This document shows, piece by piece, positions 1,526 to 36,290 of a stretch of DNA of 64,000 nt. A program made the translations under genes and the position numbers. The first letter of the stretch is position 1, and each line of letters opens with the position of its first letter. The notes under the pieces are model-generated. The model ran no database searches. It was given only the letters and a program-made list of their open reading frames with translations, and was not told where the DNA came from. This DNA is from Clostridia bacterium (GTDB lineage Bacteria; Bacillota; Clostridia; UMGS1883): NCBI GenBank assembly GCA_045615705.1, contig JAZLFH010000059.1, positions 1,499-65,498 of the forward strand. Reading direction: 5' to 3'.

Positions 1526-2064
1526 GGCTTGATTCCCTCTTCAAAGCAGTTTTCATAATAATGCCAGGTAAGTTTATCTTCTTTTTGCAATACGATTTCT
1601 CCGCAAGAGCGGTCAGAAGGTTTCTCATTTACAAAAAACAGCCATCCGCTCATCGGCCCCAAATCCATTTCATAAAAATCCCCTATTCCCTTTATGTACG
1701 GATTTTTTTCTCCTCCCGAATATTCAAAGAAAATGTTTTCTTTTTCAAGCACGATTTTTGTCAGTTCAAACGCCGTCATACCCTCTTTAAATTCCAAGTC
1801 CGTTTCAAGCATTACGCCATCGGGCGTTATAAACTTTATATAAACGCAGTTTTTATTTTCTTCTCGTTTTTCTTCTTCGGCAACTTCTCCTGCTTTTTGG
1901 GTGAATTCTTCCGTTTTTTCTTTAACACTTTCCTGTGAGTCTTCTGTTTTTACATCAAGTACTGTTTCTTCATTTATGAATTCTTTTTCTTCTGTCTTTA
2001 TTTGTTTTGCCGTGCAACCTGATAAAAGAAAAACTATCATTAAAAATGCTGCTAACCTTTTCAT
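1522..2064 (-). CDS. DUF4430 (transcobalamin-like beta-domain) lipoprotein
   Basis: The lipoprotein signal MKRLAAFLMIVFLLSGC has a GGAGGT ribosome-binding site 8 nt upstream. The C-terminal GPMSGWLFFVNEKP...GEIVLQKEDKLTWHYY segment matches the DUF4430 hallmark GW.y.VNG...dGD.v.w.Y. Confidence 0.75.
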   Translation of the reverse strand: MKRLAAFLMIVFLLSGCTAKQIKTEEKEFINEETVLDVKTEDSQESVKEKTEEFTQKAGEVAEEEKREENKNCVYIKFITPDGVMLETDLEFKEGMTAFELTKIVLEKENIFFEYSGGEKNPYIKGIGDFYEMDLGPMSGWLFFVNEKPSDRSCGEIVLQKEDKLTWHYYENCFEEGIKP

Positions 2065-4151
2065 CTTTCTAATACCTCCAAAGTTCTTATCAAAACCGTT
2101 ACGCACATTTCCCTGCTGACATTTTCAAGCGGTAAAAATTCTTTGTTATCTCCTTGCATTAATCTTAGTGAGTAAACAGTTTTTACGCTATCTTTTGCCC
2201 ACGATGAAACAATATCAAAATCTTTGATTATGTTTTCACCCTCAGACTTTAAGTTATATGCTCTGCAAATAATTACCGCCATCTGTTCACGAGTGATATA
2301 ACTTAAAGCCTCAAACTTGTTTTCTCCTACACCATCCATTATGCCGTATTTCTTGACTTTTTGCACGCTGTCATAATACCAGTCTGTTTTTTTCACATCG
2401 TCAAAAGGCTCTGTTTCTTCCTCCTCCAATTCAAGAACTCTGCACATTACAGTAGCAAATTCCGCTCTCGTCATTTTGCTTTTGGGGTTAAACTTTTGAT
2501 GGTCGCCCTCAATTAAGTTTCTTTCTTGTGCCTTTTTTACACTGTCTTTTGCCCAATCAGACACTTCGTTTTCGTCCAAAAAAGGCTCTGCTTCTTTTTT
2601 ATTTGTTCCTGTTATTTCTTTTTGTTCTTCCTTTACCTCCGTCCGGAAGCCTCCGCTTTGAGGACTGCTCTGTTTTTCAACGCTTATATAAAACGGCTCA
2701 CTCCTGACTATTGACGGATAAGACGATATGTTGTTTTTATAAACTTTTATTTCATAATCACCGGGTGTTAAAACAGAAATCTCGGCTTCTCCGTTTTTGT
2801 CGGTACTATATTTTTCACCGTTTATCTCTACTGTGGCATTTTCTATAAAAACTTCTTTTTCGGCATTGTCGTTCCAATCGTAATATGATGACGAAACCTT
2901 TACTGTAAACCTCTTTCCTGCTTTTACGGTATTCGGTGCCGAAATTTTAGGTATTAAAGTGTCCGGTTCAAACATTCCGTAATAAAGAAGAATGTAATCT
3001 CCGTCATTTACTTTTATAGAGTCTGCACTCTCAGATGCAGAAATGCCATTTACCAAGAACAGCCATCCGTCCCAACCTCCGAACTTTCCTGCAACTTCTC
3101 CGTTTATGCCCTTTATGTATGCTCCGTACTGACTTTTTTCTATATTGTATGATATATTTTCTCTGTCAAGTGCTTTTTTAATTGCATTTAAAACATTTAG
3201 TGAACCTTTAACTGTTACTTCCTCATTTAAAATGTTATCTTCTATACCCTCAATTCTGACTTTTACGGTTGCTTTTTCGCATTCAAACTGAGATTTCAGT
3301 CTTAAAAAGACACTTTTACCGCTTATTACATCTCCAAGTGCTATTAAACCTTGCTGTGTTGCCATCAAGTTGTTTTCTCCGCCCAACGCATAAGAAAATG
3401 AGCCGTCTTGTAATCTATATTCATACAATTTGTCCAGCAGTGTTTTTCCACCTTTTATAAAGTCAGGATCATCTAACTTACCGTAAGTAGAAAGAGCAGA
3501 AATTACCGTTTCAAGCGTATTTGAGTTTTCAACTCCCCAACTTTCAAATCCGCCGTCTTGCAGTTGGACTGATTTCAAGTAGTCTATTGCTCTATATACT
3601 ACATCGGTATACGGAGAGTCATAAAGTGCTAAAATAACCATTGCAGTCAGGTCTGTATCGGCACTGTCTTTGGTGTAGCCAAACCCACCGCCTTCTGCCT
3701 CAAACGACACTAAGTAAGAAAGTGCTTTTTCTCTTTGATACTCCTCTTTCGATGCATCAAGTGCCAGAATTGAGTATGCCTGGATATTTGGATATGCTCC
3801 GAACGCTCCTGTTTCTCTGTCCTGCTTTAACGAAAGTTCGTGTGCTAAATCTCTTTGCCAAATATCATGAACATTTTTTCCCTGTGCGATGAGCGAAAAG
3901 ATTGCTCCTGCATAATCTGTCGCACTTGAATTTTCGTTTATACTATCGCTTGTAAGCGTTGGAAGAGTATAGTTTTTAATATCTTTTTCCGCACCCCAAA
4001 GGGCTACTACATCCCACCAAGAAGTTAAGTCTGAATTTGTATCATAATAATTCAGTACATCTTGTATGAAGGTTGTTTCCTCGGCAAATGCGACAGTAGA
4101 GATTACCGTTACAATTATGATGAGTAGTGAGAGAACTCTTTTTAATTTCAT
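2061..4151 (-). CDS. S-layer-anchored transcobalamin-like cobalamin-binding surface protein (prenyltransferase-like alpha/alpha toroid + DUF4430 + Ig-like + SLH repeats)
   Basis: A signal peptide MKLKRVLSLLIIIVTVISTVAFA leads the protein. The N-terminal half has terpenoid-cyclase/prenyltransferase-like repeats (WWDVVALWG..., QRDLAHELSLKQDRETGAFGAYPNIQAYSILAL). The middle is a DUF4430 segment (GGWDGWLFLVNG...VNDGDYILLYYG). The C-terminus has SLH-type repeats (DVKKTDWYYDSVQKVKKYGIMDG...). It is the first gene after the putative B12 riboswitch. Confidence 0.75.
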   Translation of the reverse strand: MKLKRVLSLLIIIVTVISTVAFAEETTFIQDVLNYYDTNSDLTSWWDVVALWGAEKDIKNYTLPTLTSDSINENSSATDYAGAIFSLIAQGKNVHDIWQRDLAHELSLKQDRETGAFGAYPNIQAYSILALDASKEEYQREKALSYLVSFEAEGGGFGYTKDSADTDLTAMVILALYDSPYTDVVYRAIDYLKSVQLQDGGFESWGVENSNTLETVISALSTYGKLDDPDFIKGGKTLLDKLYEYRLQDGSFSYALGGENNLMATQQGLIALGDVISGKSVFLRLKSQFECEKATVKVRIEGIEDNILNEEVTVKGSLNVLNAIKKALDRENISYNIEKSQYGAYIKGINGEVAGKFGGWDGWLFLVNGISASESADSIKVNDGDYILLYYGMFEPDTLIPKISAPNTVKAGKRFTVKVSSSYYDWNDNAEKEVFIENATVEINGEKYSTDKNGEAEISVLTPGDYEIKVYKNNISSYPSIVRSEPFYISVEKQSSPQSGGFRTEVKEEQKEITGTNKKEAEPFLDENEVSDWAKDSVKKAQERNLIEGDHQKFNPKSKMTRAEFATVMCRVLELEEEETEPFDDVKKTDWYYDSVQKVKKYGIMDGVGENKFEALSYITREQMAVIICRAYNLKSEGENIIKDFDIVSSWAKDSVKTVYSLRLMQGDNKEFLPLENVSREMCVTVLIRTLEVLER

Positions 4152-4165
4152 AAAACCACATCCTC

Positions 4166-4335
4166 AAAAAAAATTAGCCGTCCCAAAGGCATGGAACGGC
4201 ATAAATGCAATAACTCTATTGCAAAAAACCACTCCGTCTCTCGCAGAGTATAAGGTCTTACTGTACAAAAAAGGCATTCCGACTATAACGGCAGCGGGAC
4301 TGTGTAGGATTTTCACCATTCTTTCCCTTTTTTGC
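4166..4335 (-). ncRNA. putative cobalamin (B12) riboswitch with intrinsic-terminator expression platform
   Basis: The minus-strand leader reads ...GGTGAAAATCCTACACAGTCCCGCTGCCGTTATAGTCGGAATGCC..., with GGTGAAAATCC and a B12-box-like AGTCGGAATGCC (plus 4273..4284). Next comes the hairpin GCCGUUCCAUGCCUUUGGGACGGC (plus 4177..4200) followed by CUAAUUUUUUUU, immediately 5' of the ATG at 4151. The B12-binding genes downstream fit this context. Confidence 0.5.
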
Positions 4336-4358
4336 AATACAATATTGACTTGTCCTTC

Positions 4359-25911: not shown

Positions 25912-26715
25912 TTAATTTTTTATTTCTCCCGTAACGGCATCAACTTCAATATATTCTTCGTATTTTGATTCTTGGCTTTCAACCTTTATTTTTGAAAAAA
26001 CTACCGAATTTTTTTCTTTTTTATACTCCACCTTGTAAAGGTATCTGATGCCGTCAAGGATTTTTTCCTTAGTGCCGACAAAGTTGGGATACTCGCCTAA
26101 ATCTTTATTTGTACAAATTTTGTTTGAAGCCTCAACCGATACGCCCAAATCCGTCAACAAAATATGCTCGAAATCTCCGTAATCTCCTACCTGTGCGGTT
26201 CTTCCGATTGACTTTAAATATTCATTTGCCTGATTGACCTCTTGTTCCTTTAAATTCCTTTCGTCCTCTTCGTGTATAGTCAAAACTCTGGAATGAAGTT
26301 CTTTCGGAAAAAGTTTTTTTGTAGATTCAATGTTTCTGCTTCCGTCTTCCGGCACTTCGTAACTTTCTAAAACTTTTTTGTCGTCAGTCGTTTTAAATGT
26401 AAGTTTGGTCGGGATAACTCCGCTGCCCGAAACCTTTACAAAATTACCGTTTTCAAATCCATACTCGCCGTACATAACAAGAGCATATAAAGTTATTTTT
26501 CCGTCATTTCCGCTTTCGGTAGAAAGCACTGTATTTCCTTCGCAAAGTGCTTCGCCGTCAAGGTACATACCGGCGTTTTGTTCTATAATTGCATTATGTA
26601 CATCTTCATCTTTAATCTGCGATTCCGTTTGAGGTTGCCGCATACTTTTGTTATCAACACAAGAGCAGGTAAAAAGCATTACCGAAAGTGTTAAAAGAAG
26701 GAATAATTTTTTCAT
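25912..26715 (-). CDS. lipoprotein of unknown function
   Basis: MKKLFLLLTLSVMLFTCSC is a lipobox, and the mature protein is hydrophilic. Confidence 0.5.
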   Translation of the reverse strand: MKKLFLLLTLSVMLFTCSCVDNKSMRQPQTESQIKDEDVHNAIIEQNAGMYLDGEALCEGNTVLSTESGNDGKITLYALVMYGEYGFENGNFVKVSGSGVIPTKLTFKTTDDKKVLESYEVPEDGSRNIESTKKLFPKELHSRVLTIHEEDERNLKEQEVNQANEYLKSIGRTAQVGDYGDFEHILLTDLGVSVEASNKICTNKDLGEYPNFVGTKEKILDGIRYLYKVEYKKEKNSVVFSKIKVESQESKYEEYIEVDAVTGEIKN

Positions 26716-26867
26716 AAAAACACAACCTTTCACAACCCTTATTTTAGCAGAAATATATAAAAAAGTCAACTCATAGGAAGTTTGTTAAAGGTTTTTTTAA
26801 AAAATATATTGATTTTTGAAATTTCTTCTTGTAATTTTACAAATTTCGAGATATAATATTGGGGTCC

Positions 26868-26958
26868 GGAGAGATGGCTGAGTTGGTCTAAGGCGCACGA
26901 CTGGAAATCGTGTAACGGTTAACCCCGTTCAAGGGTTCGAATCCCTTTCTCTCCGCCA
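26868..26958 (+). tRNA. tRNA-Ser (anticodon GGA), CCA encoded
   Basis: GGAGAGA acceptor stem, anticodon stem CACGA/UCGUG with loop CUGGAAA, a long variable arm (AACGG/CCGUU), T-arm GGTTCGAATCC, and a 3' end of UCUCUCC-G-CCA. A TTGTAA-17-TATAAT promoter lies upstream. Confidence 0.85.
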
Positions 26959-27046: not shown

Positions 27047-27414
27047 GGAAGTAAAAAGTAATATGGAAGAAGGAAAAAGTAAGGTAAAAAATCGCAGGCG
27101 ATTTTGTTTTGAATATATGATTTTTCACCAAATTTCAGCATCAATTTCGTATCTGCTCCACCTGTTTTCAAACATTGCATCTAGCACATCATCAATAAAT
27201 CATCAATTTTTAATTTTGATTTCCGTTTGTGAGTAATTGCTTTTGCACTTTTTCACTTCCTTTGTCGATAGTATTTTTTGTAACACACAATACTCCAAAC
27301 CGTTTCATAAATTAAGTGAAAAAATGAATAAAAGCAAAAGGCGATAGATTTTACTCTACCGCCTTTTTTGTTATGTATGGTATGTTTTTCTTTTTACTTA
27401 CGGTGTTGTGATTT

Positions 27415-30400
27415 TTAATCTTCTCCTTTTGCTTTGCAAAGAGGAGTTATATCGGAAAGCGATGACCACCAAAAAGCTTTTACATATCCGCTTTGGGTAA
27501 ATTTGCCTGTCAGGTCATCTGTTTTCGTCAGGTCAAAAGTTTTCACATCAAGTAATTGATTCAAATTTTCATTATCATAAAGTGCAACAATCACAATGCC
27601 CTTGTTTGTATTCTCGCCGTTTGGTGTTACGGTGAAGGTATTCCATGTGGTGTCAAGGGCAAGGCTATCTTTTTCGACGATTTTCACATACGGCATTGTG
27701 CTGTCAAAACTGACACGGTTTTCGTTTTTGTCGTAAACCGCCATATTTTCGCCGATTGTGATTACATCGGCGCCGATGGCTGTTTCGGACACTGAACCCG
27801 TTGCGGTAACTTTGCCGCCGTAAATCGCAACGCCGGTCAAGTCGCCGTTAGTAGTGTTGCCGTGACCGATTCCTTGTGCGGAGAGCAGTCCGGTTGCCGT
27901 GACATCGCCGCCGTAGACTGTCACGCTTCCACCATTGCCGCCGAACATTCCCGTGCCGATGCCTGCACCGTTCGAACTGCTGTTTGCGACTATCTCGCCG
28001 CCGTGAATCGTGATATTGCCGCAGCTTGCGCTCATACCTCCGCCGATGCCGGCAGAGTATGTACCGCCGTTTGCAATAAGCTTACCGGTGCCGCCCTTTT
28101 GCGCATGGACCGTCAGGCTGTTTTCGCCTTCGACCTTGATGCCGCCGACCGTCAGCTCACAGCCGTCCATCAAAATAAGGCTGACATCGCCCGTCACCGT
28201 GACGCTGCTTAAATTTACCGTACCGTCTGCGATGTAAAATCCGCCATTCCATGCGGTTTCATCCGAAAGAACGGTCGCACCTGCGGGAATTTCCAAAAGC
28301 TGCTCTGTGACCTTTTGATTTTGCTCGTCCAGGCTCCGGGCGATATAACAACAGCTCGGATCTTTCGCACCGCAAACGGAGCAGTAGCCATTTACATAAG
28401 TACAGCTTTCGGTTTTGGTCGGTTCGTAACATTCGCCTCCTTGATTGGTATAACAGGTATCACAGAGAAAAGTATGAGTTCCGTTTGTGCCGGCGTCGAT
28501 GATCTTGCCGTACGAATGTATATGTTGTGTCCATTTTGCATAAAGCGTAATATCCTCTGCACAGTTCGCACTGACAGAGGTGACCGGACTGCCCGAACAG
28601 TCAGATTTCTTGAACCAGCCGAGAAAAATATAGTCTGCTTTGACTGCTCTCTTCAACGCTGTCACAGAACCGTAGGTATGTGTTGTCGGATAACCGATTT
28701 CATGTTCACCCGTGAAATCGCATCCGTCTTCATCCTCATCCTCATCCTCATCTTCATCTTCATCCTCGGCTTTGTCCTTGGCTTTATCCTTATAAATTAT
28801 GTTGTAAGCAGCGTTCTTCCAATGTGCGTACAGCGTAAAATCACTCTTCCTGTCGCAGTTTCTTACGCTTTCTCCGCTTGCGTTGTAGTAAGCATTTCCA
28901 AACTTATCATAATAACCCTCGAATGTATAACCGGTCTTTGTCGGAACAGTTATTTCGGGCATCGCATAAGTATAGCGTGCCTCGGCGGCTTCGCTTCCGT
29001 CTCCGCCTCCCTGCATATCAAAGAAGGTAACCGTCACGCTGATATTCGGAGCGTCTGCAAGCTCCAAATAGCCTCCATCGGCGGTTTCGTGCCTTATGTA
29101 TTTACCTTCTGCATCAGAGAAGAAATAATTCGCATCTGCTCCGTTTGTTGTAAATCTGCCGTTGCCGGCTTTTGAAATGCCGATTTGAGCGCCCTGCTTA
29201 AATCCATCGGGGCTATTGCAAACGGTTATGCATTTTGAATCCTGCAAATAGAGATTGTTGTCAGAAGTTCCGTCTTTTGACAAGTTACCGTAAATTTTAG
29301 CTGTTCCGCCGACTGTAAGTTCTCCTCCGTCAGCAACATAAACTCCGCCGCCAAGGTCTGCCGAATTTCCCGTAACAGTGCCGCCTGTCATCGTCAGCTT
29401 GCCTTTGACCAGCACGCCGCCGCCATATAGCTTAGAATCACCTGTGCCTAAGGTCTGACCGGTGCCGCCCGTGATTGTTCCGCACGACGACTGACTGCTG
29501 TCCGTAATTGTCAGATTTGTGCCCTCTTTAACCACGATTGCGCTTCCTTTTGCCTGAGAGAAGTCCATACTGTGTCCGTTGAGGTCAAGAATTACTTTTG
29601 TATGATCTTCCGATGTGTCTACACAGAACGGCTCATCATGGCTGCCGGCTTTGATATCATTCAACAGTTTAATTGTTACAATATACGGAGTACTGTCCAC
29701 CACGCTGACCTCAAGGTCACCGTCGAGCGCCTCACGTGTACACAGTCTGTCCCATGGGCTTGCCGCAATATAGTCAAATAATTTATGCGTGTGATAATAT
29801 GCAACCTCGGTTGCATCATTATGTTTCCATATATTTTCACGGTTTTCCTCAGCGTCTTCACCAATATATGAAGGCCAGTCCGGGTTTTCTCCTATATAGC
29901 TCTCAAGATTTATATTCTTAAGTGTTGATACCGGATTTGAGCCGGCTGCATAGGACTCCACCGGAATTGCGTCCGCAAGCAGCTGCGCTTTGAGAGCAAA
30001 CGCCGCAAACGCCTCACTGCTTGAAATAAACGGCTCTTCTTCACATGCCATACGCTCATCAATAAACGGTGTGAATCTTGTATTTGCCGGACTGATGTCT
30101 CCGGGGTCATAGTTTTCGTTTATGCCCCAGCCGCCTTCGTAATTCATCTGTAATGTGGCATCAAGACCAAGGATATTATACATGACATTATTGATTACTT
30201 TTATATAATCCGTTCCTTTGATTTTTTCGGTAAATGCCCAGTAACCATCATATTTCAATAATTCATGGCCTTCTTTATATTCACTTTTTCGGGTGTACAA
30301 TTTGTTGAAAAATATATCTCTTATTTCCTCTTCACTCGCTTCACGGTCCACATCGTCCGGACAATTTGCAAGGAATTCATCGCTTGGTGAATACAAATTG

Positions 30401-31731
30401 ACAACATTCTTTTTTACATCCTCAAAGCGACCCTTCCAGGTCAAGGTGCTGCGAAAATCCGATTGCCCGAAATTATCATACCAATGCGAAGCCCGCTTTT
30501 GAGCCGGGATATTATTTTCCCAGTAATCATCAACCATTCCGTCATCAACGGCATTTTTGTCGAATGCCTCCGCGGCAATTGATGCATTGAGCATAAAATA
30601 CTTTTCATATTCAAGTCCGAAGTCTTGTATTGCAGAACAAATCAGCATATTGCCGAGTGAATGACCGACCAGATATTTTCTGCCCGGAAGCCGTTCACAT
30701 AAATTTTTAAAATCCTGTGCCGCGGCAAAAGCATTTTCAACATTTGCGTAATAATTCAATGTGAGATTAATAGTACCAAGGAACTTTATCATTGATTCAT
30801 CGCTGTCCCATTCTACTGCCGTAAACATCGAATCCGAGCCGGACTGCCAAAGCCTCTTGTAAAATTCTGACGCTTCTCCTCTCGCTTCATCATGCGTTAC
30901 ATTGTATCCGTGGACAAAGACGAACTGCCTGCCGTCCGAATCCGCATCCTTTCTCGCCGTCGGCTCGTCAGGTACGGATGAATCACCTTGACGAAGATTG
31001 ATTGTGCGGTACATATCCTCAACCTTCGCTACCTTGATAGGCAAATTTAAACTTACCGGATCACGGTCGTCTTTATAACCCGTAAGAACAATATTCCCTT
31101 CACCGAGACCGCTGCCTTCGATCAGTAAAACACCTCTGCCTTCTTGCAAAAAACCATCCGGCAGTTGTGGTTCATCACGGAGAGAAGTGACAGAAGCTTC
31201 ATATACCGGAGTTTCACCATCGAACTCTTTTACATCTATTTTTGTATGAAAATCGCCGGCTTTATCTGCGTTTAGTTTTGTAAACACAACATTTACATTT
31301 GCATCACCTGTGGATTTAAGTTCCCATGTATAATTTTCCCATTCGGGAACCCCGGTCACATCAACCAAAACAGGGAAAAAATCGAGCAGGTCGCAGCGCC
31401 CGTTTACTTTATCGTCATCATAATCCATTTTGTTTCTTTCGTCTGCCGGAGTATCATGTCCGGCAGTATCATGTCCGGCAGTATTTGTATCTCCGGCTGT
31501 TTCGCCGTCACTTGTTCCTTCGGCATCATCGTCATCATTCAGCCAAATGGTAAATACGCCGGTTCCGGATATGGATTTATCATAGTCATATTCGTCAATC
31601 TTGCCATCCCTGTTTAAATCGGGAACCAGTTTCGGCCCCCGTCCGGCCGCAAAGACAGGGATAGTCCCAAGCGGAAGCATTGAGACGATCACAAAAACCG
31701 CAAGTAATAAACTGATAATCTTCTTTTTCAT
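27415..31731 (-). CDS. giant secreted modular surface protein (EF-hand/dockerin-like Ca motif, alpha/beta-hydrolase GHSLG domain, Gly-rich parallel beta-helix repeats, Listeria-Bacteroides (Flg_new) repeats, acidic (D/E)n linker, Cys-rich modules, conserved C-terminal module)
   Basis: The likely start is MKKKIISLLLAVFVIVSMLPLG at 31731, with GGAGGT 9 nt upstream, followed by a signal peptide. It contains DLNRDGKIDEYD, FVFVHGYN...LVGHSLGNMLI, the repeat GGxVTAxG..GAGIGGG, and GYTFEGYYDKFGN. The last 70 aa are near-identical to the paralogue at 32100..36008. Confidence 0.8.
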   Translation of the reverse strand: MKKKIISLLLAVFVIVSMLPLGTIPVFAAGRGPKLVPDLNRDGKIDEYDYDKSISGTGVFTIWLNDDDDAEGTSDGETAGDTNTAGHDTAGHDTPADERNKMDYDDDKVNGRCDLLDFFPVLVDVTGVPEWENYTWELKSTGDANVNVVFTKLNADKAGDFHTKIDVKEFDGETPVYEASVTSLRDEPQLPDGFLQEGRGVLLIEGSGLGEGNIVLTGYKDDRDPVSLNLPIKVAKVEDMYRTINLRQGDSSVPDEPTARKDADSDGRQFVFVHGYNVTHDEARGEASEFYKRLWQSGSDSMFTAVEWDSDESMIKFLGTINLTLNYYANVENAFAAAQDFKNLCERLPGRKYLVGHSLGNMLICSAIQDFGLEYEKYFMLNASIAAEAFDKNAVDDGMVDDYWENNIPAQKRASHWYDNFGQSDFRSTLTWKGRFEDVKKNVVNLYSPSDEFLANCPDDVDREASEEEIRDIFFNKLYTRKSEYKEGHELLKYDGYWAFTEKIKGTDYIKVINNVMYNILGLDATLQMNYEGGWGINENYDPGDISPANTRFTPFIDERMACEEEPFISSSEAFAAFALKAQLLADAIPVESYAAGSNPVSTLKNINLESYIGENPDWPSYIGEDAEENRENIWKHNDATEVAYYHTHKLFDYIAASPWDRLCTREALDGDLEVSVVDSTPYIVTIKLLNDIKAGSHDEPFCVDTSEDHTKVILDLNGHSMDFSQAKGSAIVVKEGTNLTITDSSQSSCGTITGGTGQTLGTGDSKLYGGGVLVKGKLTMTGGTVTGNSADLGGGVYVADGGELTVGGTAKIYGNLSKDGTSDNNLYLQDSKCITVCNSPDGFKQGAQIGISKAGNGRFTTNGADANYFFSDAEGKYIRHETADGGYLELADAPNISVTVTFFDMQGGGDGSEAAEARYTYAMPEITVPTKTGYTFEGYYDKFGNAYYNASGESVRNCDRKSDFTLYAHWKNAAYNIIYKDKAKDKAEDEDEDEDEDEDEDGCDFTGEHEIGYPTTHTYGSVTALKRAVKADYIFLGWFKKSDCSGSPVTSVSANCAEDITLYAKWTQHIHSYGKIIDAGTNGTHTFLCDTCYTNQGGECYEPTKTESCTYVNGYCSVCGAKDPSCCYIARSLDEQNQKVTEQLLEIPAGATVLSDETAWNGGFYIADGTVNLSSVTVTGDVSLILMDGCELTVGGIKVEGENSLTVHAQKGGTGKLIANGGTYSAGIGGGMSASCGNITIHGGEIVANSSSNGAGIGTGMFGGNGGSVTVYGGDVTATGLLSAQGIGHGNTTNGDLTGVAIYGGKVTATGSVSETAIGADVITIGENMAVYDKNENRVSFDSTMPYVKIVEKDSLALDTTWNTFTVTPNGENTNKGIVIVALYDNENLNQLLDVKTFDLTKTDDLTGKFTQSGYVKAFWWSSLSDITPLCKAKGED

Positions 31732-32009
31732 ACTCTTGTACCTCCTGAAATTGCTTTTCATATTCTACTTTACACTATCAATTGCTTCTATTATTGAAAT
31801 TTTTATAAAAATTTAACTGTGTTTTTCTTGTGTATGTAATAAAATGACACAACAAAACCAATTATACATTTTAATTATAGCACTTTTGATTGTGACTTTC
31901 AAGATGCCAAAGCCATTTTCTCTCTTTGCAAGTTTTCCACAAAATTAACAAAATGCTTTGAATTTTATCTTACTAAACTCTCTTATGCAAACTTGTGTCA
32001 AATAAAGAC

Positions 32010-32052
32010 AAAAAAGATAATGGATACTTTTGAGTATTCATTATCTTTTTTT
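32010..32052. terminator. bidirectional intrinsic terminator between the two giant genes
   Basis: aaaaagataatggatacttttgagtattcattatcttttttt. Confidence 0.5.
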
Positions 32053-32099
32053 ATAATATTTAATTTATATTGTGCCTGAATTTTAATCTGCTGTGATTT

Positions 32100-35000
32100 T
32101 TAATCTTCTCCTTTTGCTTTGCAAAGAGGAGTTATATCGGAAAGCGATGACCACCAAAAAGCTTTAACATATCCGCTTTGGGTAAATTTACCTTCCGGCT
32201 TATCTGTTTTCGTAAGGTCAAAAGTTTTCACATCAAGAAGTCTTGTCATATATTCGCTGTCATAAAGTGCAACAATGACAACACCCTTGTTTGTATCCTC
32301 GCCGTTTGGCGTTACCTTGAAGTCATTGCCCGAAATGTCAAGGGTAAGGGAATCCGGCACAAATGTTTTTGTTATCTTTGCAAACCGGTAATCGCTTACG
32401 CTTTTGCCGCTTGGAAGCGGAATAAACTCGTCGGTTTCATTCGCCCTGACCTGAACCGTGCCGTCAATCACGCCGCCCTCGTTAAGTATAACACTTGCAC
32501 CGGTTGCGCCGTCAGAACGGTAGCCTCCTTCATTATCTTTTCCTCCGGCACCGCCGTTGCCGCCGGTCGCATTGACCGAACCTTCATTTATTACAAGGCT
32601 TAAGCATTTTATTCCGGAGCCGCCGTCGCCTCCGGAATGAGCTGTTCCCCAAGAGGCGCCGGCACTAAAACCTTTGCCGCCGACACCGCCGACAGCTGTG
32701 ACGGTCGCATTGTTCACGGTAAGGATTGAAACATCAATTGCGTTGCCGCCTTTAAGTGATTTGCCGTAGCCGCCATTACCGCCTTTTACCGATACCGAAA
32801 CGCCGATGATTGTAAGAGCGGAAACGGTTATCGCATTACCGCCTTCAACCTTCTCCGGCCCGTTCGGACCGTAACAATTCAGCTGACCTGCCTTGCTGCC
32901 TGTACTTTGCGAATGTAGATACAAATGTGCGTCCTCGCCGGAAATAGTGTCTTTTATAAAAATGGGATTTTCATTTGTCTGAATCATAAGTGTGCTTTCG
33001 TCCGTCAAAATCAAATGCACATCACCCGAAACCGACACATTACCCGTTATTCCTACGCCATCCTTTACAACATACCATTTGCCGGCTTCCCATTCGGTCG
33101 GCTTGTGGTTTTCGTCAATCACTTCATAATCTAAACAGACCGATTGTTTTAGTTCCTTGCTTACTTCATCATAGTATAGGTACGGCACGACGGAACTTTC
33201 CGCTACGAGTCGGTAATAGGTGTCGGTGAGGATTTGTGCCCAATATAATCCCCCAACTTGTCTGACAACTTCCTCGTTTGCCCGGTTGTAAACTTTCACA
33301 GTATCTCTTCCGTTATAGTAAATTTCAATACCATTCGGGTCGCTGACCGAAAAAGCCTTTTCCCCGCCCTGCACGGTTACATTGGCGGGGCGAAGGATTC
33401 CGGTGCTGTTACTGAACTTCGACGTTTTTGTCTGAATGCCATATTTACTTCCCGTGACGGAAAGATTACCGCCGGTAACTTCAAGGTGATTTGCCAAAAT
33501 TCCTACTTCACCTTCCGTCGTTACAGTCACATTTGCGTTCTCGCTGATTGTAATTGTATGAAATTTAGCGTAAATGCCGTTATACCCTCCTGTTACGGTT
33601 ACGGTGCCGCCTTTGATAGAAAGGTCGCCGTCGTTTATGATAATAACTTCATGAACATTGGCTACATTATTTACGGTCACGGTACCGCCGGAGACATGCA
33701 TTCCATCGTCTACTATAATAGAATATATGGAGAAGCCTGTCGGAACGACACCGCTCACGGTCAAAGCTCCGTTGCTAATCTCCAGGTGACAACATTTAAT
33801 GAAACCTGCTGTTATGTTTCCGCCGAGGATGGAAATGTCCAATCTCCAGCTGTCAAAAGAATCAACATTCAGGCAGCCCTTGGTGCTCCCGTCCGACTGG
33901 GCATAAACCTTAATATGGCCGCCTTCGCTCGTTATATTTCCGTTTACCGTCAGCGTTTTGCCGTCGCACAGGATCAGGCAGACAGTGCCGGAAAGCGAAA
34001 TGTCTCCGTCTATCGTTATGTTCTCGTTTACCACATACCAGCCGGCGTTTTCTTCATCCGCCCCGCCTGTCCATGTTGTGGTGTCCTGCATCACAGGGGT
34101 ATAGCTCTTGCACTCGGCATAGGCATTACCGGACATCCAATATTTCACCGCAGGCAATGTACCATCTGCAATATGGATTGCTTTATATCCCGACAGAGAA
34201 TTGTATAAATCCTTTTCTTCCGTTACGGGAGAGACAGAAAGCTCTGTGCCGCTTAAATCCTTTACGGTAAATTTTTTGTCCGCATTGGCATAAACCTTAA
34301 CCGAATAAGCAATTACGGCATCTTTGGTGCTTTTGCTGTCGGCAATAATATCGCCGCCGTAAATGGAAATTTTGTTTCTGTAAATACCCCTCGAACCGCC
34401 GCCGAGTGCCATACTGCCGTTGCCGTACGCTTTCACGGTGCCGCCGTATACGGTAATACTGCCGCCGTTGCCTTCATAGCCGTTGCCGATGCCGGCACCT
34501 AGGTTGCCGCCGGTAGCAGTCACCGTGCCACCGTATATCGTTATATCGCCGCAGTCGCGTTCATGACCGCCGCCGATACCGGCTCCGTCATTACCGCCGT
34601 AAGCCGTAACAATACCTCCGTTGATGGTAAGTGTGCCGCTGTCTTCCTTGTCATAACTGCCAATACCTGCCGCACTTGAGCCGCCGTATGCAACGATGCT
34701 GCCGGTATCGTTTTTCTGACCGTAAATTGTCAGAGAATCACTTGCACCGAAAGTACCGCCATCAGTCAATTCTATTGCGGCGTGCACATTCCCGGGCGAA
34801 GGGATTTTCAGCTCGCAATCGTCGCAAAGAACAAGATTTACATCGCCGTTCACAGTGATATGTTTGCCCTCCGGCAGCGTAACGCTTTCCGAAAGAACAT
34901 ACCAGCCGCTTTCAAGTTCTCTTGTGTCCGCCGTGATTTTTTGGGCTGTTTCCGGGATATCTTCCTCCGTGGAAACAACCTGCTTTTTGTCGCTGTCCCA

Positions 35001-36008
35001 GCTCCGGGCGATATATTTGCCCAAGTTGTGTGCACCGCATGCGCATACGCCGTCTTCATATGTATGTGCTTCGGGAGTGCCAAATTCCTCACACCCCGTG
35101 CATTTGTATGCGTGCGTGCCGTCGCCGTTGTTCACACAGTCCCCGGTGAAATTGTGGCTGTGCGGAGGATAGATAATGGATACATAGTGGTATCTGTATT
35201 TTCTGTAATCTTCGACTGTAACGGGCTTACTGTCATCAGCTGTGTCACCCGCTCGGATCTCCAGACCGTTCGCCACGGTAAATTCGCCCTCACCTATGTG
35301 ATTGCCTGCGCCGATGCCCGAGTTTCTGGCCGATGTAGCCGTGACGGTACCGCCATACACGGTCACTTTGCTGCCGCTTCCCCAATGACCGCCGCCGATG
35401 CCTGCACCGTATGTGGATGTAGCCACGATGGTGCCGCCGTACACGGTAACTGCACCGGCACTGATGAAGTCATCATTGTAGCCGTCGTCGCCGATGCCTG
35501 CACCGTATTTGGATGCAGCCACGATGGTGCCGCCGAATATGTTCACTGTGCCGGTGTTGGTGTTGTGGTCGCCTGCTCCGATGGCGGCAGAATACTCGTT
35601 AGGATAACTGTCGCAGTGTGCTTCGATTACGCCTATATTCTTTTGCTGACCGTAAATATTCAGCGTATAACCTTCGGCAACCTCTATACCGGCTGCCGCA
35701 GTAAGCGTAAAACCATCAAGCAGAACGATATTGGTTGGGTTGTTGGTTGTGCCTTTTACCACGATCCGGTTCCCGTTTGTAACGGTTTTGCGGACAACAT
35801 ACCAGCCGCCGGAAAGTTCGGTGGTGTCCGCCGTGATTTCTCCGGCGTATGTAGGAATATCCTTTGCCGTGGAAACGACCTGCTTTTTTGTTTCGTCCCA
35901 GCTCCGGGCGATGTATTTACCGCCCGTTTCCGCCGAAACCGTTACCGGCAAAAGCGATACCACCATCGCCAGCACAATTATTATGCTTAGTAATTTTTTT
36001 GTTTTCAT
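32100..36008 (-). CDS. giant secreted Gly-rich beta-helix surface protein, paralogue of 27415..31731
   Basis: Signal peptide MKTKKLLSIIIVLAMVVSLLPVTVSA. The (K/C)YIARSWD...GWYVV...LVL.DG module is repeated (aa 31 and 330). It has AGIGGG/GAGIG beta-helix repeats and a Cys-rich insert. Its C-terminal 70 aa and 3' flank match the first giant gene at the nucleotide level. Confidence 0.8.
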   Translation of the reverse strand: MKTKKLLSIIIVLAMVVSLLPVTVSAETGGKYIARSWDETKKQVVSTAKDIPTYAGEITADTTELSGGWYVVRKTVTNGNRIVVKGTTNNPTNIVLLDGFTLTAAAGIEVAEGYTLNIYGQQKNIGVIEAHCDSYPNEYSAAIGAGDHNTNTGTVNIFGGTIVAASKYGAGIGDDGYNDDFISAGAVTVYGGTIVATSTYGAGIGGGHWGSGSKVTVYGGTVTATSARNSGIGAGNHIGEGEFTVANGLEIRAGDTADDSKPVTVEDYRKYRYHYVSIIYPPHSHNFTGDCVNNGDGTHAYKCTGCEEFGTPEAHTYEDGVCACGAHNLGKYIARSWDSDKKQVVSTEEDIPETAQKITADTRELESGWYVLSESVTLPEGKHITVNGDVNLVLCDDCELKIPSPGNVHAAIELTDGGTFGASDSLTIYGQKNDTGSIVAYGGSSAAGIGSYDKEDSGTLTINGGIVTAYGGNDGAGIGGGHERDCGDITIYGGTVTATGGNLGAGIGNGYEGNGGSITVYGGTVKAYGNGSMALGGGSRGIYRNKISIYGGDIIADSKSTKDAVIAYSVKVYANADKKFTVKDLSGTELSVSPVTEEKDLYNSLSGYKAIHIADGTLPAVKYWMSGNAYAECKSYTPVMQDTTTWTGGADEENAGWYVVNENITIDGDISLSGTVCLILCDGKTLTVNGNITSEGGHIKVYAQSDGSTKGCLNVDSFDSWRLDISILGGNITAGFIKCCHLEISNGALTVSGVVPTGFSIYSIIVDDGMHVSGGTVTVNNVANVHEVIIINDGDLSIKGGTVTVTGGYNGIYAKFHTITISENANVTVTTEGEVGILANHLEVTGGNLSVTGSKYGIQTKTSKFSNSTGILRPANVTVQGGEKAFSVSDPNGIEIYYNGRDTVKVYNRANEEVVRQVGGLYWAQILTDTYYRLVAESSVVPYLYYDEVSKELKQSVCLDYEVIDENHKPTEWEAGKWYVVKDGVGITGNVSVSGDVHLILTDESTLMIQTNENPIFIKDTISGEDAHLYLHSQSTGSKAGQLNCYGPNGPEKVEGGNAITVSALTIIGVSVSVKGGNGGYGKSLKGGNAIDVSILTVNNATVTAVGGVGGKGFSAGASWGTAHSGGDGGSGIKCLSLVINEGSVNATGGNGGAGGKDNEGGYRSDGATGASVILNEGGVIDGTVQVRANETDEFIPLPSGKSVSDYRFAKITKTFVPDSLTLDISGNDFKVTPNGEDTNKGVVIVALYDSEYMTRLLDVKTFDLTKTDKPEGKFTQSGYVKAFWWSSLSDITPLCKAKGED

Positions 36009-36169
36009 AATGAAAACCTCACTTTCCCTAAATTGCTTCTATGTTTTTGAAATTTTTATGCAAATTTAACTGTGTTTTTCTTGTATATATAATCAAATGA
36101 CACAACAAACCTAACTATTCATCTTAATTATAGCACTTTAAAAGAAAATTTTCAAGATGCCAAAGCCGT

Positions 36170-36290
36170 TTTCTCTCTTTTTTACAGGAAAATTTTTTCT
36201 TGTACAAAGTTTTCCTTAAAAGTGGCGAAAGCCTTCTGTTTTATTAAACAAAAGGCTTTGAATTTTATCTTATTATACGAAAAAACTCGA
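36170..36290 (-). promoter_or_regulatory. conserved roughly 110-nt leader/promoter cassette (copy A), shared upstream element of three consecutive minus-strand genes
   Basis: Near-identical copies sit at 37598..37720 (upstream of the decarboxylase gene) and partially at 31900..31985 (upstream of the first giant gene). Each copy contains the hairpin AAAGCCTT...AAGGCTTT, the 8-bp palindrome TTGTACAA, and a -10-like TAAAAT at its edge. Confidence 0.55.

Follow-up and report, generated by a model that had tools for sequence, protein, structure and literature searches.

CBM37, family 37 of the carbohydrate-binding modules in CAZy, is restricted to Ruminococcus albus and mostly C-terminal (Ezer et al. 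2008 as summarised in PMC4081043). It has been demonstrated to fix enzymes to the cell wall of the bacterium, replaces the dockerins of the orthologous R. flavefaciens enzymes, is sometimes tandem or internal and rarely stands beside a dockerin (PMC4081043). The WxL domain of Enterococcus, Lactobacillus and Listeria, likewise a C-terminal module of the non-LPXTG kind, is a proposed non-covalent binder of peptidoglycan (PMC9772566). About half of the fibrillar-adhesin-like proteins have no known anchor, and the fibrillar adhesins of Gram-positive bacteria usually carry their adhesive domain at the N-terminus (PMC8286594). Here we describe a C-terminal module of 84 amino acids (aa) shared by two neighbouring giant genes, gene A and gene B, in a stretch of 64,000 nucleotides (nt) of contig JAZLFH010000059.1 from a Clostridia bacterium; this whole stretch is referred to as the window. 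The module is a real, autonomous and uncatalogued domain, and its family is small as far as sampled. The reading that we favour, by analogy with CBM37 of R. albus, is that it may act as a non-covalent surface-retention domain (probability about 0.4).

The module, its family and its predicted fold

The two genes, their signal peptides, the two module copies and the near-identical ends of these copies are located as follows.

27415..31761, minus strand: gene A, an open reading frame (ORF) of 1448 aa plus stop
32100..36008, minus strand: gene B, the neighbouring ORF, of 1302 aa plus stop
27418..27669, minus strand: module copy A, 84 aa, residues 1365-1448 of gene A
32103..32354, minus strand: module copy B, residues 1219-1302 of gene B, 81% identical to copy A
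27406..27504, minus strand: 3' tract of copy A, almost identical in copy B; it spans the final 90 coding nt with the stop codon and 8 nt after it
32091..32189, minus strand: near-identical 3' tract of copy B, the counterpart of the copy A tract
31648..31761, minus strand: signal peptide of gene A, ~38 aa, ...IPVFA/AG, from hydropathy with the cleavage site placed by eye
35931..36008, minus strand: signal peptide of gene B, 26 aa, MKTKKLLSIIIVLAMVVSLLPVTVSA followed by E, of the MK[TL]KK type

The sharing of the module, described in an earlier note made from the letters of this DNA, was confirmed, since tblastn of either copy against the 64-kb window found only the other, at 81% identity over 84 aa and E ~1e-43, far beyond chance. 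The next match had E>0.8, and the window holds no third copy. On the minus strand both copies translate to ...VTPNGE(N/D)TNKG(I/V)VIVALYD...TQSGYVKAFWWSSLSDITPLCKAKGED, followed by the stop codon. The length of 70 aa given in that note proved too short: the conserved unit comprises ~84 aa and begins ~13 codons upstream of the start assumed there, at DSL(A/T)LD (27669 and 32354), which is the first strand of the AlphaFold model. Within the module the paralogues are 81% identical, against at most 40% elsewhere in the proteins. The giants had been called otherwise divergent; they are not unrelated outside the module, as the final ~370 aa of gene A match the repeated beta-helix units of gene B at 32-40% identity (BLASTP). 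The module itself is not part of that repeated unit, and gene B contains no internal copies of it.

The description of the module as recombining was borne out by the DNA. The final 90 coding nt of the two copies are 98.9% identical, with one synonymous difference, whereas identity drops to 78.2% in the 165 nt before them (Fisher p=1e-6); downstream, the match continues for 8 nt after the stop codon and is then lost. Because of this step and its abrupt end, the 3' tract is probably a short gene-conversion tract.

Upstream of the module the two products differ in content. Gene A encodes, from N- to C-terminus, a signal peptide, a DUF900-type alpha/beta hydrolase (aa 274-387), a beta-helix region and, further on, two Flg_new (Listeria-Bacteroides) repeats at ~aa 1025-1079, as found by Pfam scan; its last part consists of one Cys/His-rich linker plus beta-helix unit and then the module. 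Searched as a whole protein against the PDB, it gave no match. Gene B, whose product is identical to database protein P0001, encodes a signal peptide, repeated YIARSWD...beta-helix units (Pfam Beta_helix_3) and the module. By hydropathy the signal peptide is the sole hydrophobic segment of either product; both signal peptides are typical Sec signals, and neither contains a lipobox.

A HMMER profile built from the two copies was searched exhaustively against 1.84 billion representative proteins (E<=1e-3) and returned 41 proteins, 26 of them below 1e-10. One of these, P0029 (2104 aa), was discarded as spurious on account of weak repeated partial matches, an ankyrin-like tail and a eukaryote-like sequence, leaving 40 genuine members, each a cluster at 50% identity. 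A word-indexed protein search found nothing with the module alone and only P0042 and P0013 with a 37-sequence alignment; since the exhaustive search retrieved 41, the word index misses this family. Among GTDB species representatives one locus was found, encoding an 1836-aa protein of a Eubacteriales metagenome-assembled genome, in a scan with two narrow peptide patterns that is therefore no census. No module copy was present in JGI metagenome contigs, phage records or plasmid records, and a six-frame scan of all fetched family loci gave no additional copies. As far as sampled, the family does not extend beyond a narrow set of gut-type Clostridia (Eubacteriales).

The family signature reads ...L.L...G..FTV...G...G.G.V.VALYD......LLDVK.FDL.....P.G.F...GYVKA(F/M)WW..L..(I/M).PLC.A.G..., with G35, V39, Y42, W79 and P87 nearly invariant. 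A single Cys near the C-terminus is mostly conserved; because divergent members have I, A or F in its place, it is suggested to sit in the core rather than to cross-link. The novelty proposed for the domain was upheld: among 37 member sequences there was no consistent match to Pfam or NCBIfam, even at E<=10, and none to a known Pfam anchoring domain at that threshold, and no member matched a PDB sequence. A profile search of the PDB likewise gave nothing significant (E>=0.19), the best matches being the pancreatic-lipase PLAT domain and complement C3 MG domains.

Predicted from a single sequence, the AlphaFold model was unusable, with a predicted local distance difference test (pLDDT) score of 48, so that the 37-sequence alignment was needed. 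With that alignment a confident beta-sandwich of seven strands without helix was obtained (pLDDT 93.4, predicted template modelling score 0.81), in which the extreme C-terminal residues form the last strand. Foldseek searches of PDB and BFVD matched FN3 domains, monobodies, cytokine receptors and Ig-like domains of glycosidases, the best with template modelling (TM) scores of 0.48-0.57 and probabilities up to 0.99, all at E>=0.02. Because only generic FN3/Ig-like sandwiches were returned, the module is predicted to be an FN3/Ig-like beta-sandwich without a specific structural relative. Its predicted seven-strand topology is compatible with the class of FN3 and bacterial Ig-like (Big) domains but is no sign of specific homology, and it differs from them in matching no sequence model of theirs and in its own signature, VxVALYD...LLDVK.FDL...GYVKA(F/M)WW..L..(I/M)xPLC. 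We regard it as a new sequence family with a widespread fold, probably serving a role of a familiar kind.

Position, passengers and comparison with known anchoring devices

A module copy lies within 22 aa of the C-terminus in 34 of the 40 family proteins, and most complete members start with a signal peptide. The passengers upstream include, by Pfam, Beta_helix_3, Flg_new, Flg_new_2, BspA-type LRR_5, GLUG and RicinB_lectin_2, as well as MBG_2, DUF6273, F5_F8_type_C, Fn3_assoc and the DUF900 hydrolase of gene A. Fusion to such unrelated passengers is a promiscuity typical of targeting and anchoring modules. In P0005 and P0009 the module is internal and followed by ~196 further residues, and P0040 carries a tandem pair. 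The complete P0013 gene, of 151 aa, encodes only a signal peptide, a Pro/Thr linker and a stand-alone module; the linker preceding the module would speak for an independent domain.

The N-termini also show a recurrent pattern. A signal peptide of the form MK[TL]KK(L/I)xSI(I/L)... occurs in 11 of 23 long module-family proteins (P0001, P0005, P0007, P0009, P0012, P0015, P0018, P0019, P0020, P0023 and P0030) versus two of 115 other Beta_helix_3 homologues. The resulting family pattern of conserved ends, signal peptide and C-terminal module, around a variable middle may reflect shared lineage or functional pairing.

To see what stands at the C-terminus of homologous passengers, we turned to the thousands of Beta_helix_3 giants that full-length gene B retrieved as a query. 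The module is absent from all 116 of the best-scoring new homologues. The C-terminal 150 aa of 87 of these 116, hand-picked, were scanned with Pfam, so that the counts are not unbiased frequencies: Dockerin_1 was present in 12 of the 87 tails and SLH in three. By eye, the tails of P0058, P0063, P0066, P0086 and P0136 show xPxTGD, a hydrophobic segment and RKK, those of P0081 and P0142 are membrane-spanning, and those of the Bacteroidales proteins P0056, P0065, P0140, P0121 and P0153 resemble the tails of type IX secretion system (T9SS) substrates. These tails are suggestive of one passenger type whose C-terminal slot is filled by anchoring or sorting devices that vary with the lineage, and in the present family the module would fill it.

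Two further kinds of tail recur among these homologues. Another Pfam-less C-terminal module is found in P0046, P0048, P0053, P0054, P0068, P0097, P0098, P0112, P0113, P0145 and P0148, with the signature ...I(R/T)NI.A.EL.D.FTV.V.....Y SPL(T/N)YC(Y)KA....L.N.VKALY.YW..A..YF., and is a second candidate slot module of Beta_helix_3 giants. A common beta-rich tail, ...(R/K)FF(K/R)V...(S/A)..QP, closes P0107, P0114, P0118, P0124, P0152, P0095, P0105, P0155, P0128 and P0135; the sources of these proteins name them as Kiritimatiellia/Kiritimatiellae, and the tail had no Pfam match in the tail scan.

Comparison with the described devices agreed with the observation of the earlier note that the shared module has no LPXTG-type motif, hydrophobic tail, SLH, dockerin or T9SS C-terminal domain (CTD), according to motif, hydropathy and Pfam/NCBIfam scans. 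Regular expressions for sortase signals (LPxT[GAN], NPxTG, LAxTG, NPQTN, LPxGA and [SP]PxTG) returned nothing in gene A or gene B; the maximum Kyte-Doolittle hydropathy over 19 aa in the last 60 aa is 0.47 for A and 0.71 for B, both proteins end in KAKGED, and neither matches Gram_pos_anchor. SLH (PF00395), a domain that usually comes in three tandem copies, was absent from A and B at E<=1 and from the 37 module sequences at E<=10, and LysM, GW, CW_binding_1/2, ChW and PG_binding had no match in A, B or the module family. Dockerin type I (PF00404) does not match the module, whose model is all-beta. Like the module, the dockerin is a C-terminal targeting unit on diverse secreted proteins, in the same slot in 12 of the 87 homologue tails; it differs as a Ca-binding EF-hand pair as opposed to a beta-sandwich, no cohesin-like partner of the module was identified, and the two coexist in P0036. 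The WxL domain resembles the module in its conserved Trp and in its C-terminal place on surface proteins of Firmicutes, and differs in being about twice as long (~160-190 aa) with two WxL motifs, as against (F/M)WW-x-x-L in the module. It was rejected as an identification, the module having 84 aa, one (F/M)WWxxL stretch and no Pfam match at E<=10. T9SS CTDs resemble the module in being beta-sandwiches of ~80-100 aa that close large secreted surface proteins at their extreme C-terminus; the module differs in its Clostridia-type setting with Sec signal peptides and in a position that is not obligatorily C-terminal.

The closest parallel is CBM37, a module characterised by binding to polysaccharides and to the bacterial cell surface. 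Both are lineage-restricted units of ~85-100 aa that are mostly C-terminal on varied secreted proteins and take the dockerin's place, with occasional tandem or internal copies and, rarely, a dockerin present too. The GH11-CBM22-GH10-CBM37 xylanase of R. albus 7, located on plasmid pRUMAL02, also has a C-terminus that is FN3-like by Pfam, weakly (E=7e-4). In contrast, the passengers of the module are beta-helix, LRR, Flg_new and lectin giants and never glycoside hydrolases, and tblastn found no module copy on PLSDB plasmids, including pRUMAL01 and pRUMAL02 of R. albus 7. An hhalign comparison of the family alignment (A3) with the C-terminal 110 aa of the pRUMAL02 xylanase gave a probability of 0.1%, with this xylanase as single template, taken as CBM37 solely via the architecture listed in PMC4081043. 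Given that value and the lack of glycoside hydrolase fusions, the module would resemble CBM37 in function and architecture, not in membership.

Proposed surface retention and competing explanations

Under the favoured reading, the giants would be exported by Sec and their N-terminal signal peptides cleaved, and the C-terminal module would stay folded and intact and hold the protein non-covalently on the cell surface. To do so it would bind an envelope component, which might be a glycopolymer of the wall or capsule or else a receptor protein on the surface, and its role would be that played by dockerin, SLH and sortase signals in the homologues of other lineages and by CBM37 in R. albus. Starting from what is observed, namely a domain, its fold class, its family, its C-terminal bias, the diversity of its passengers and the known anchors in the same slot, we infer that the module binds something and thereby retains the protein on the cell. 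In favour of this, genes A and B encode no other retention device (sortase motif, C-terminal hydrophobic segment, lipobox or anchor domain), and the module is more conserved than its passengers, with a gene-conversion-like 3' tract. There are, in addition, probably several paralogues per genome: two adjoin each other here, and P0018 (locus L006) and P0007 (L010) come from one sample (SRR28771584). Since each of their two contigs holds part of a his operon, these two genes probably flank the same operon in one genome, so that at least one further organism probably encodes a pair of such giants separated by a few kb. The anchoring role proposed in the earlier note has circumstantial support in the C-terminal position in 34 of 40 proteins, the varied passengers and the anchor slot, while the secretion- or sorting-recognition role proposed along with it is not supported, as set out below.

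Several findings weigh against retention. P0016 carries the module at its N-terminus, right after the signal peptide and ahead of the beta-helix, and in P0036 it lies internally, ahead of a dockerin close to the C-terminus. The module occurs as a single copy and is acidic in nearly all members (isoelectric point ~4-5), whereas most non-covalent wall binders are tandem and basic. FN3/Ig is the commonest spacer and adhesion fold, and the Foldseek matches are generic (E>=0.02). The slot argument is suggestive, not decisive, because the majority of homologue tails are other uncharacterised modules and the slot is an anchor for about one quarter to one third of them. The search yielded no more than 41 clusters, its two-copy profile being shallow. 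Finally, no neighbouring gene is conserved across eight contexts, so that no dedicated machinery emerged and no candidate receptor was found.

Nearly as likely as retention is a structural or externally adhesive role, in which an ordinary Ig/FN3-like domain, structural or ligand-binding (adhesive or CBM-like), would cap or extend the passenger or bind an external target, such as a host or dietary glycan or another cell, the proteins being released or otherwise held. The generic sandwich, the single acidic copy and the flexible position (N-terminal, internal, tandem or stand-alone) fit such a role, as do the many homologous giants that end in other uncharacterised beta-rich modules; the dockerin downstream in P0036 means that the module is not the anchor there, and the conserved aromatics Y42, W78/W79 and F/M77 would suit a glycan- or protein-binding face. 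It accords less well with the extreme C-terminal bias, given that Gram-positive adhesive domains are usually N-terminal (PMC8286594). The variety of unrelated passengers, together with a conservation far above theirs, is unusual for a mere spacer, and the module lies outside the repeated beta-helix unit, with no internal copies in gene B.

An assembly or oligomerisation domain is an improbable alternative, although several proteins of one genome carry a near-identical module, kept so by gene conversion, and tandem and stand-alone versions occur. The modules of different giants would then pair, by strand exchange or through the conserved Cys, into multimers, fibres or a surface layer, and the mostly conserved Cys near the C-terminus, with a conserved tail after it in many members, could serve this end. 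The replacement of the Cys by I, A or F in divergent members points instead to a core position, the complete and confident monomer model implies no unsatisfied edge, and the anaerobic gut habitat disfavours extracellular disulfides. We give hardly any credence to a C-terminal secretion or sorting signal, read and possibly removed by dedicated machinery in the manner of the T9SS CTD of Bacteroidota. Its size, beta-sandwich fold and extreme C-terminal position recall these CTDs, and Bacteroidales homologues of the passengers have, by eye, T9SS-like tails in the same slot. Against this, Por_Secre_tail (PF18962) matched none of 37 members, TIGR04183 matched a single member of the 37, well short of the cut-off at E=0.083, and there was no Pfam match; both proteins have normal Sec signal peptides in a Clostridia-type setting, and no T9SS is known beyond the Bacteroidota/FCB group. 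The obligatory C-terminal position of a T9SS CTD is also broken by P0016 (N-terminal), by P0036, P0005 and P0009 (internal) and by P0040 (tandem), and that identification was rejected. A strictly C-terminal sorting signal is thus unlikely because the module is found right behind the signal peptide, internally, in tandem and alone as well, its last residues belong to the fold, no model matches it and no partner gene is conserved in the eight contexts.

Some way below retention in our estimate, and rather doubtful, is a dockerin-like tag of a new Gram-positive display system that plugs interchangeable giants into a dedicated envelope receptor. The receptor might be proteinaceous or a particular glycopolymer of the wall, and the repertoire could diversify in cassette fashion through the shared promoter and leader (below), the MK[TL]KK signal peptide and gene conversion acting on the tag.

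The module is, for uncultured gut Clostridia, a well-delimited and confidently foldable candidate for one among the missing retention devices. Should anchoring hold true, it would supply a new anchoring domain family for annotation resources, make the surface proteome of these organisms predictable from sequence and offer a small tag usable for surface display. If it were an Ig-like structural cap only, it would still be a new family of the Pfam type, of routine interest.

Genomic setting and further features

The contexts compared were those of the window and of loci L001, L003-L006, L009, L010 and L012. In the window the neighbours are galK, DUF4364 and tRNA-Ser, together with a pyridoxal-phosphate (PLP) decarboxylase and GH30. 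Nucleotide-sugar enzymes neighbour the family gene at L001, an array of dockerin-bearing giants at L005, histidine biosynthesis genes at L006 and L010, sugar metabolism genes and alkaline phosphatase at L009, and a glucosaminidase and ABC permeases at L012; L003 and L004 are short contigs on which essentially the family gene alone was called.

Four features flank the coding regions of genes A and B.

31780..31927, minus strand: promoter-like site and 5' leader of gene A, TTGAAA-17-TATAAT with TG upstream
36031..36180, minus strand: promoter-like site and 5' leader of gene B, the counterpart of that of gene A
27336..27367, minus strand: terminator-like hairpin 3' of gene A, without counterpart at gene B
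32010..32051, no strand assigned: 19-bp palindromic terminator-like hairpin 3' of gene B, between both genes

The promoter-like site with its 5' leader (~150 nt, the leader being ~110 nt) is 85-90% identical between the two genes, and the coding regions diverge directly after it. This arrangement suggests co-regulation or a duplicated expression cassette. A structured regulatory RNA in the leader was considered and is unsupported: there was no Rfam match, and the folding is no more stable than that of shuffled sequences (z=-0.01).

Within gene A, residues ~38-130 (31470..31650), after the signal peptide, contain one dockerin/EF-hand-like loop, DLNRDGKIDEYD, together with a low-complexity acidic stretch, and at residues ~985-1010 a linker, KDKAKDKAEDEDEDEDEDEDED, separates the two Flg_new repeats. 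Pfam made no call on the DLNRDGKIDEYD loop, the acidic stretch or the KDKAKDKAEDEDEDEDEDEDED linker.

The window has 39.7% G+C, and an ordinary Clostridia-type chromosome surrounds both genes. It includes clpC and shikimate genes beside the neighbours named above and, further on, long ORFs that resemble rpoB/rpoC in position and size. The giant genes stand out with 45-53% G+C (28000..30000 and 32000..36000), compared with 34-41% in the flanking genes; this may reflect the Gly/Ala/Thr-rich composition of the beta-helices rather than foreign origin. Gene A is closely followed on its downstream side by a tRNA-Ser(GGA) gene (26868..26958), and an ORF of 285 aa without Pfam match (25912..26769, minus strand) is placed between DUF4364 and this tRNA gene. 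Elsewhere in the window, an AdoCbl-II (cobalamin) riboswitch aptamer at 4264..4336 on the minus strand scored 43.4 bits against a gathering score of 36.5 and lies upstream of the ORF 2061..4151.

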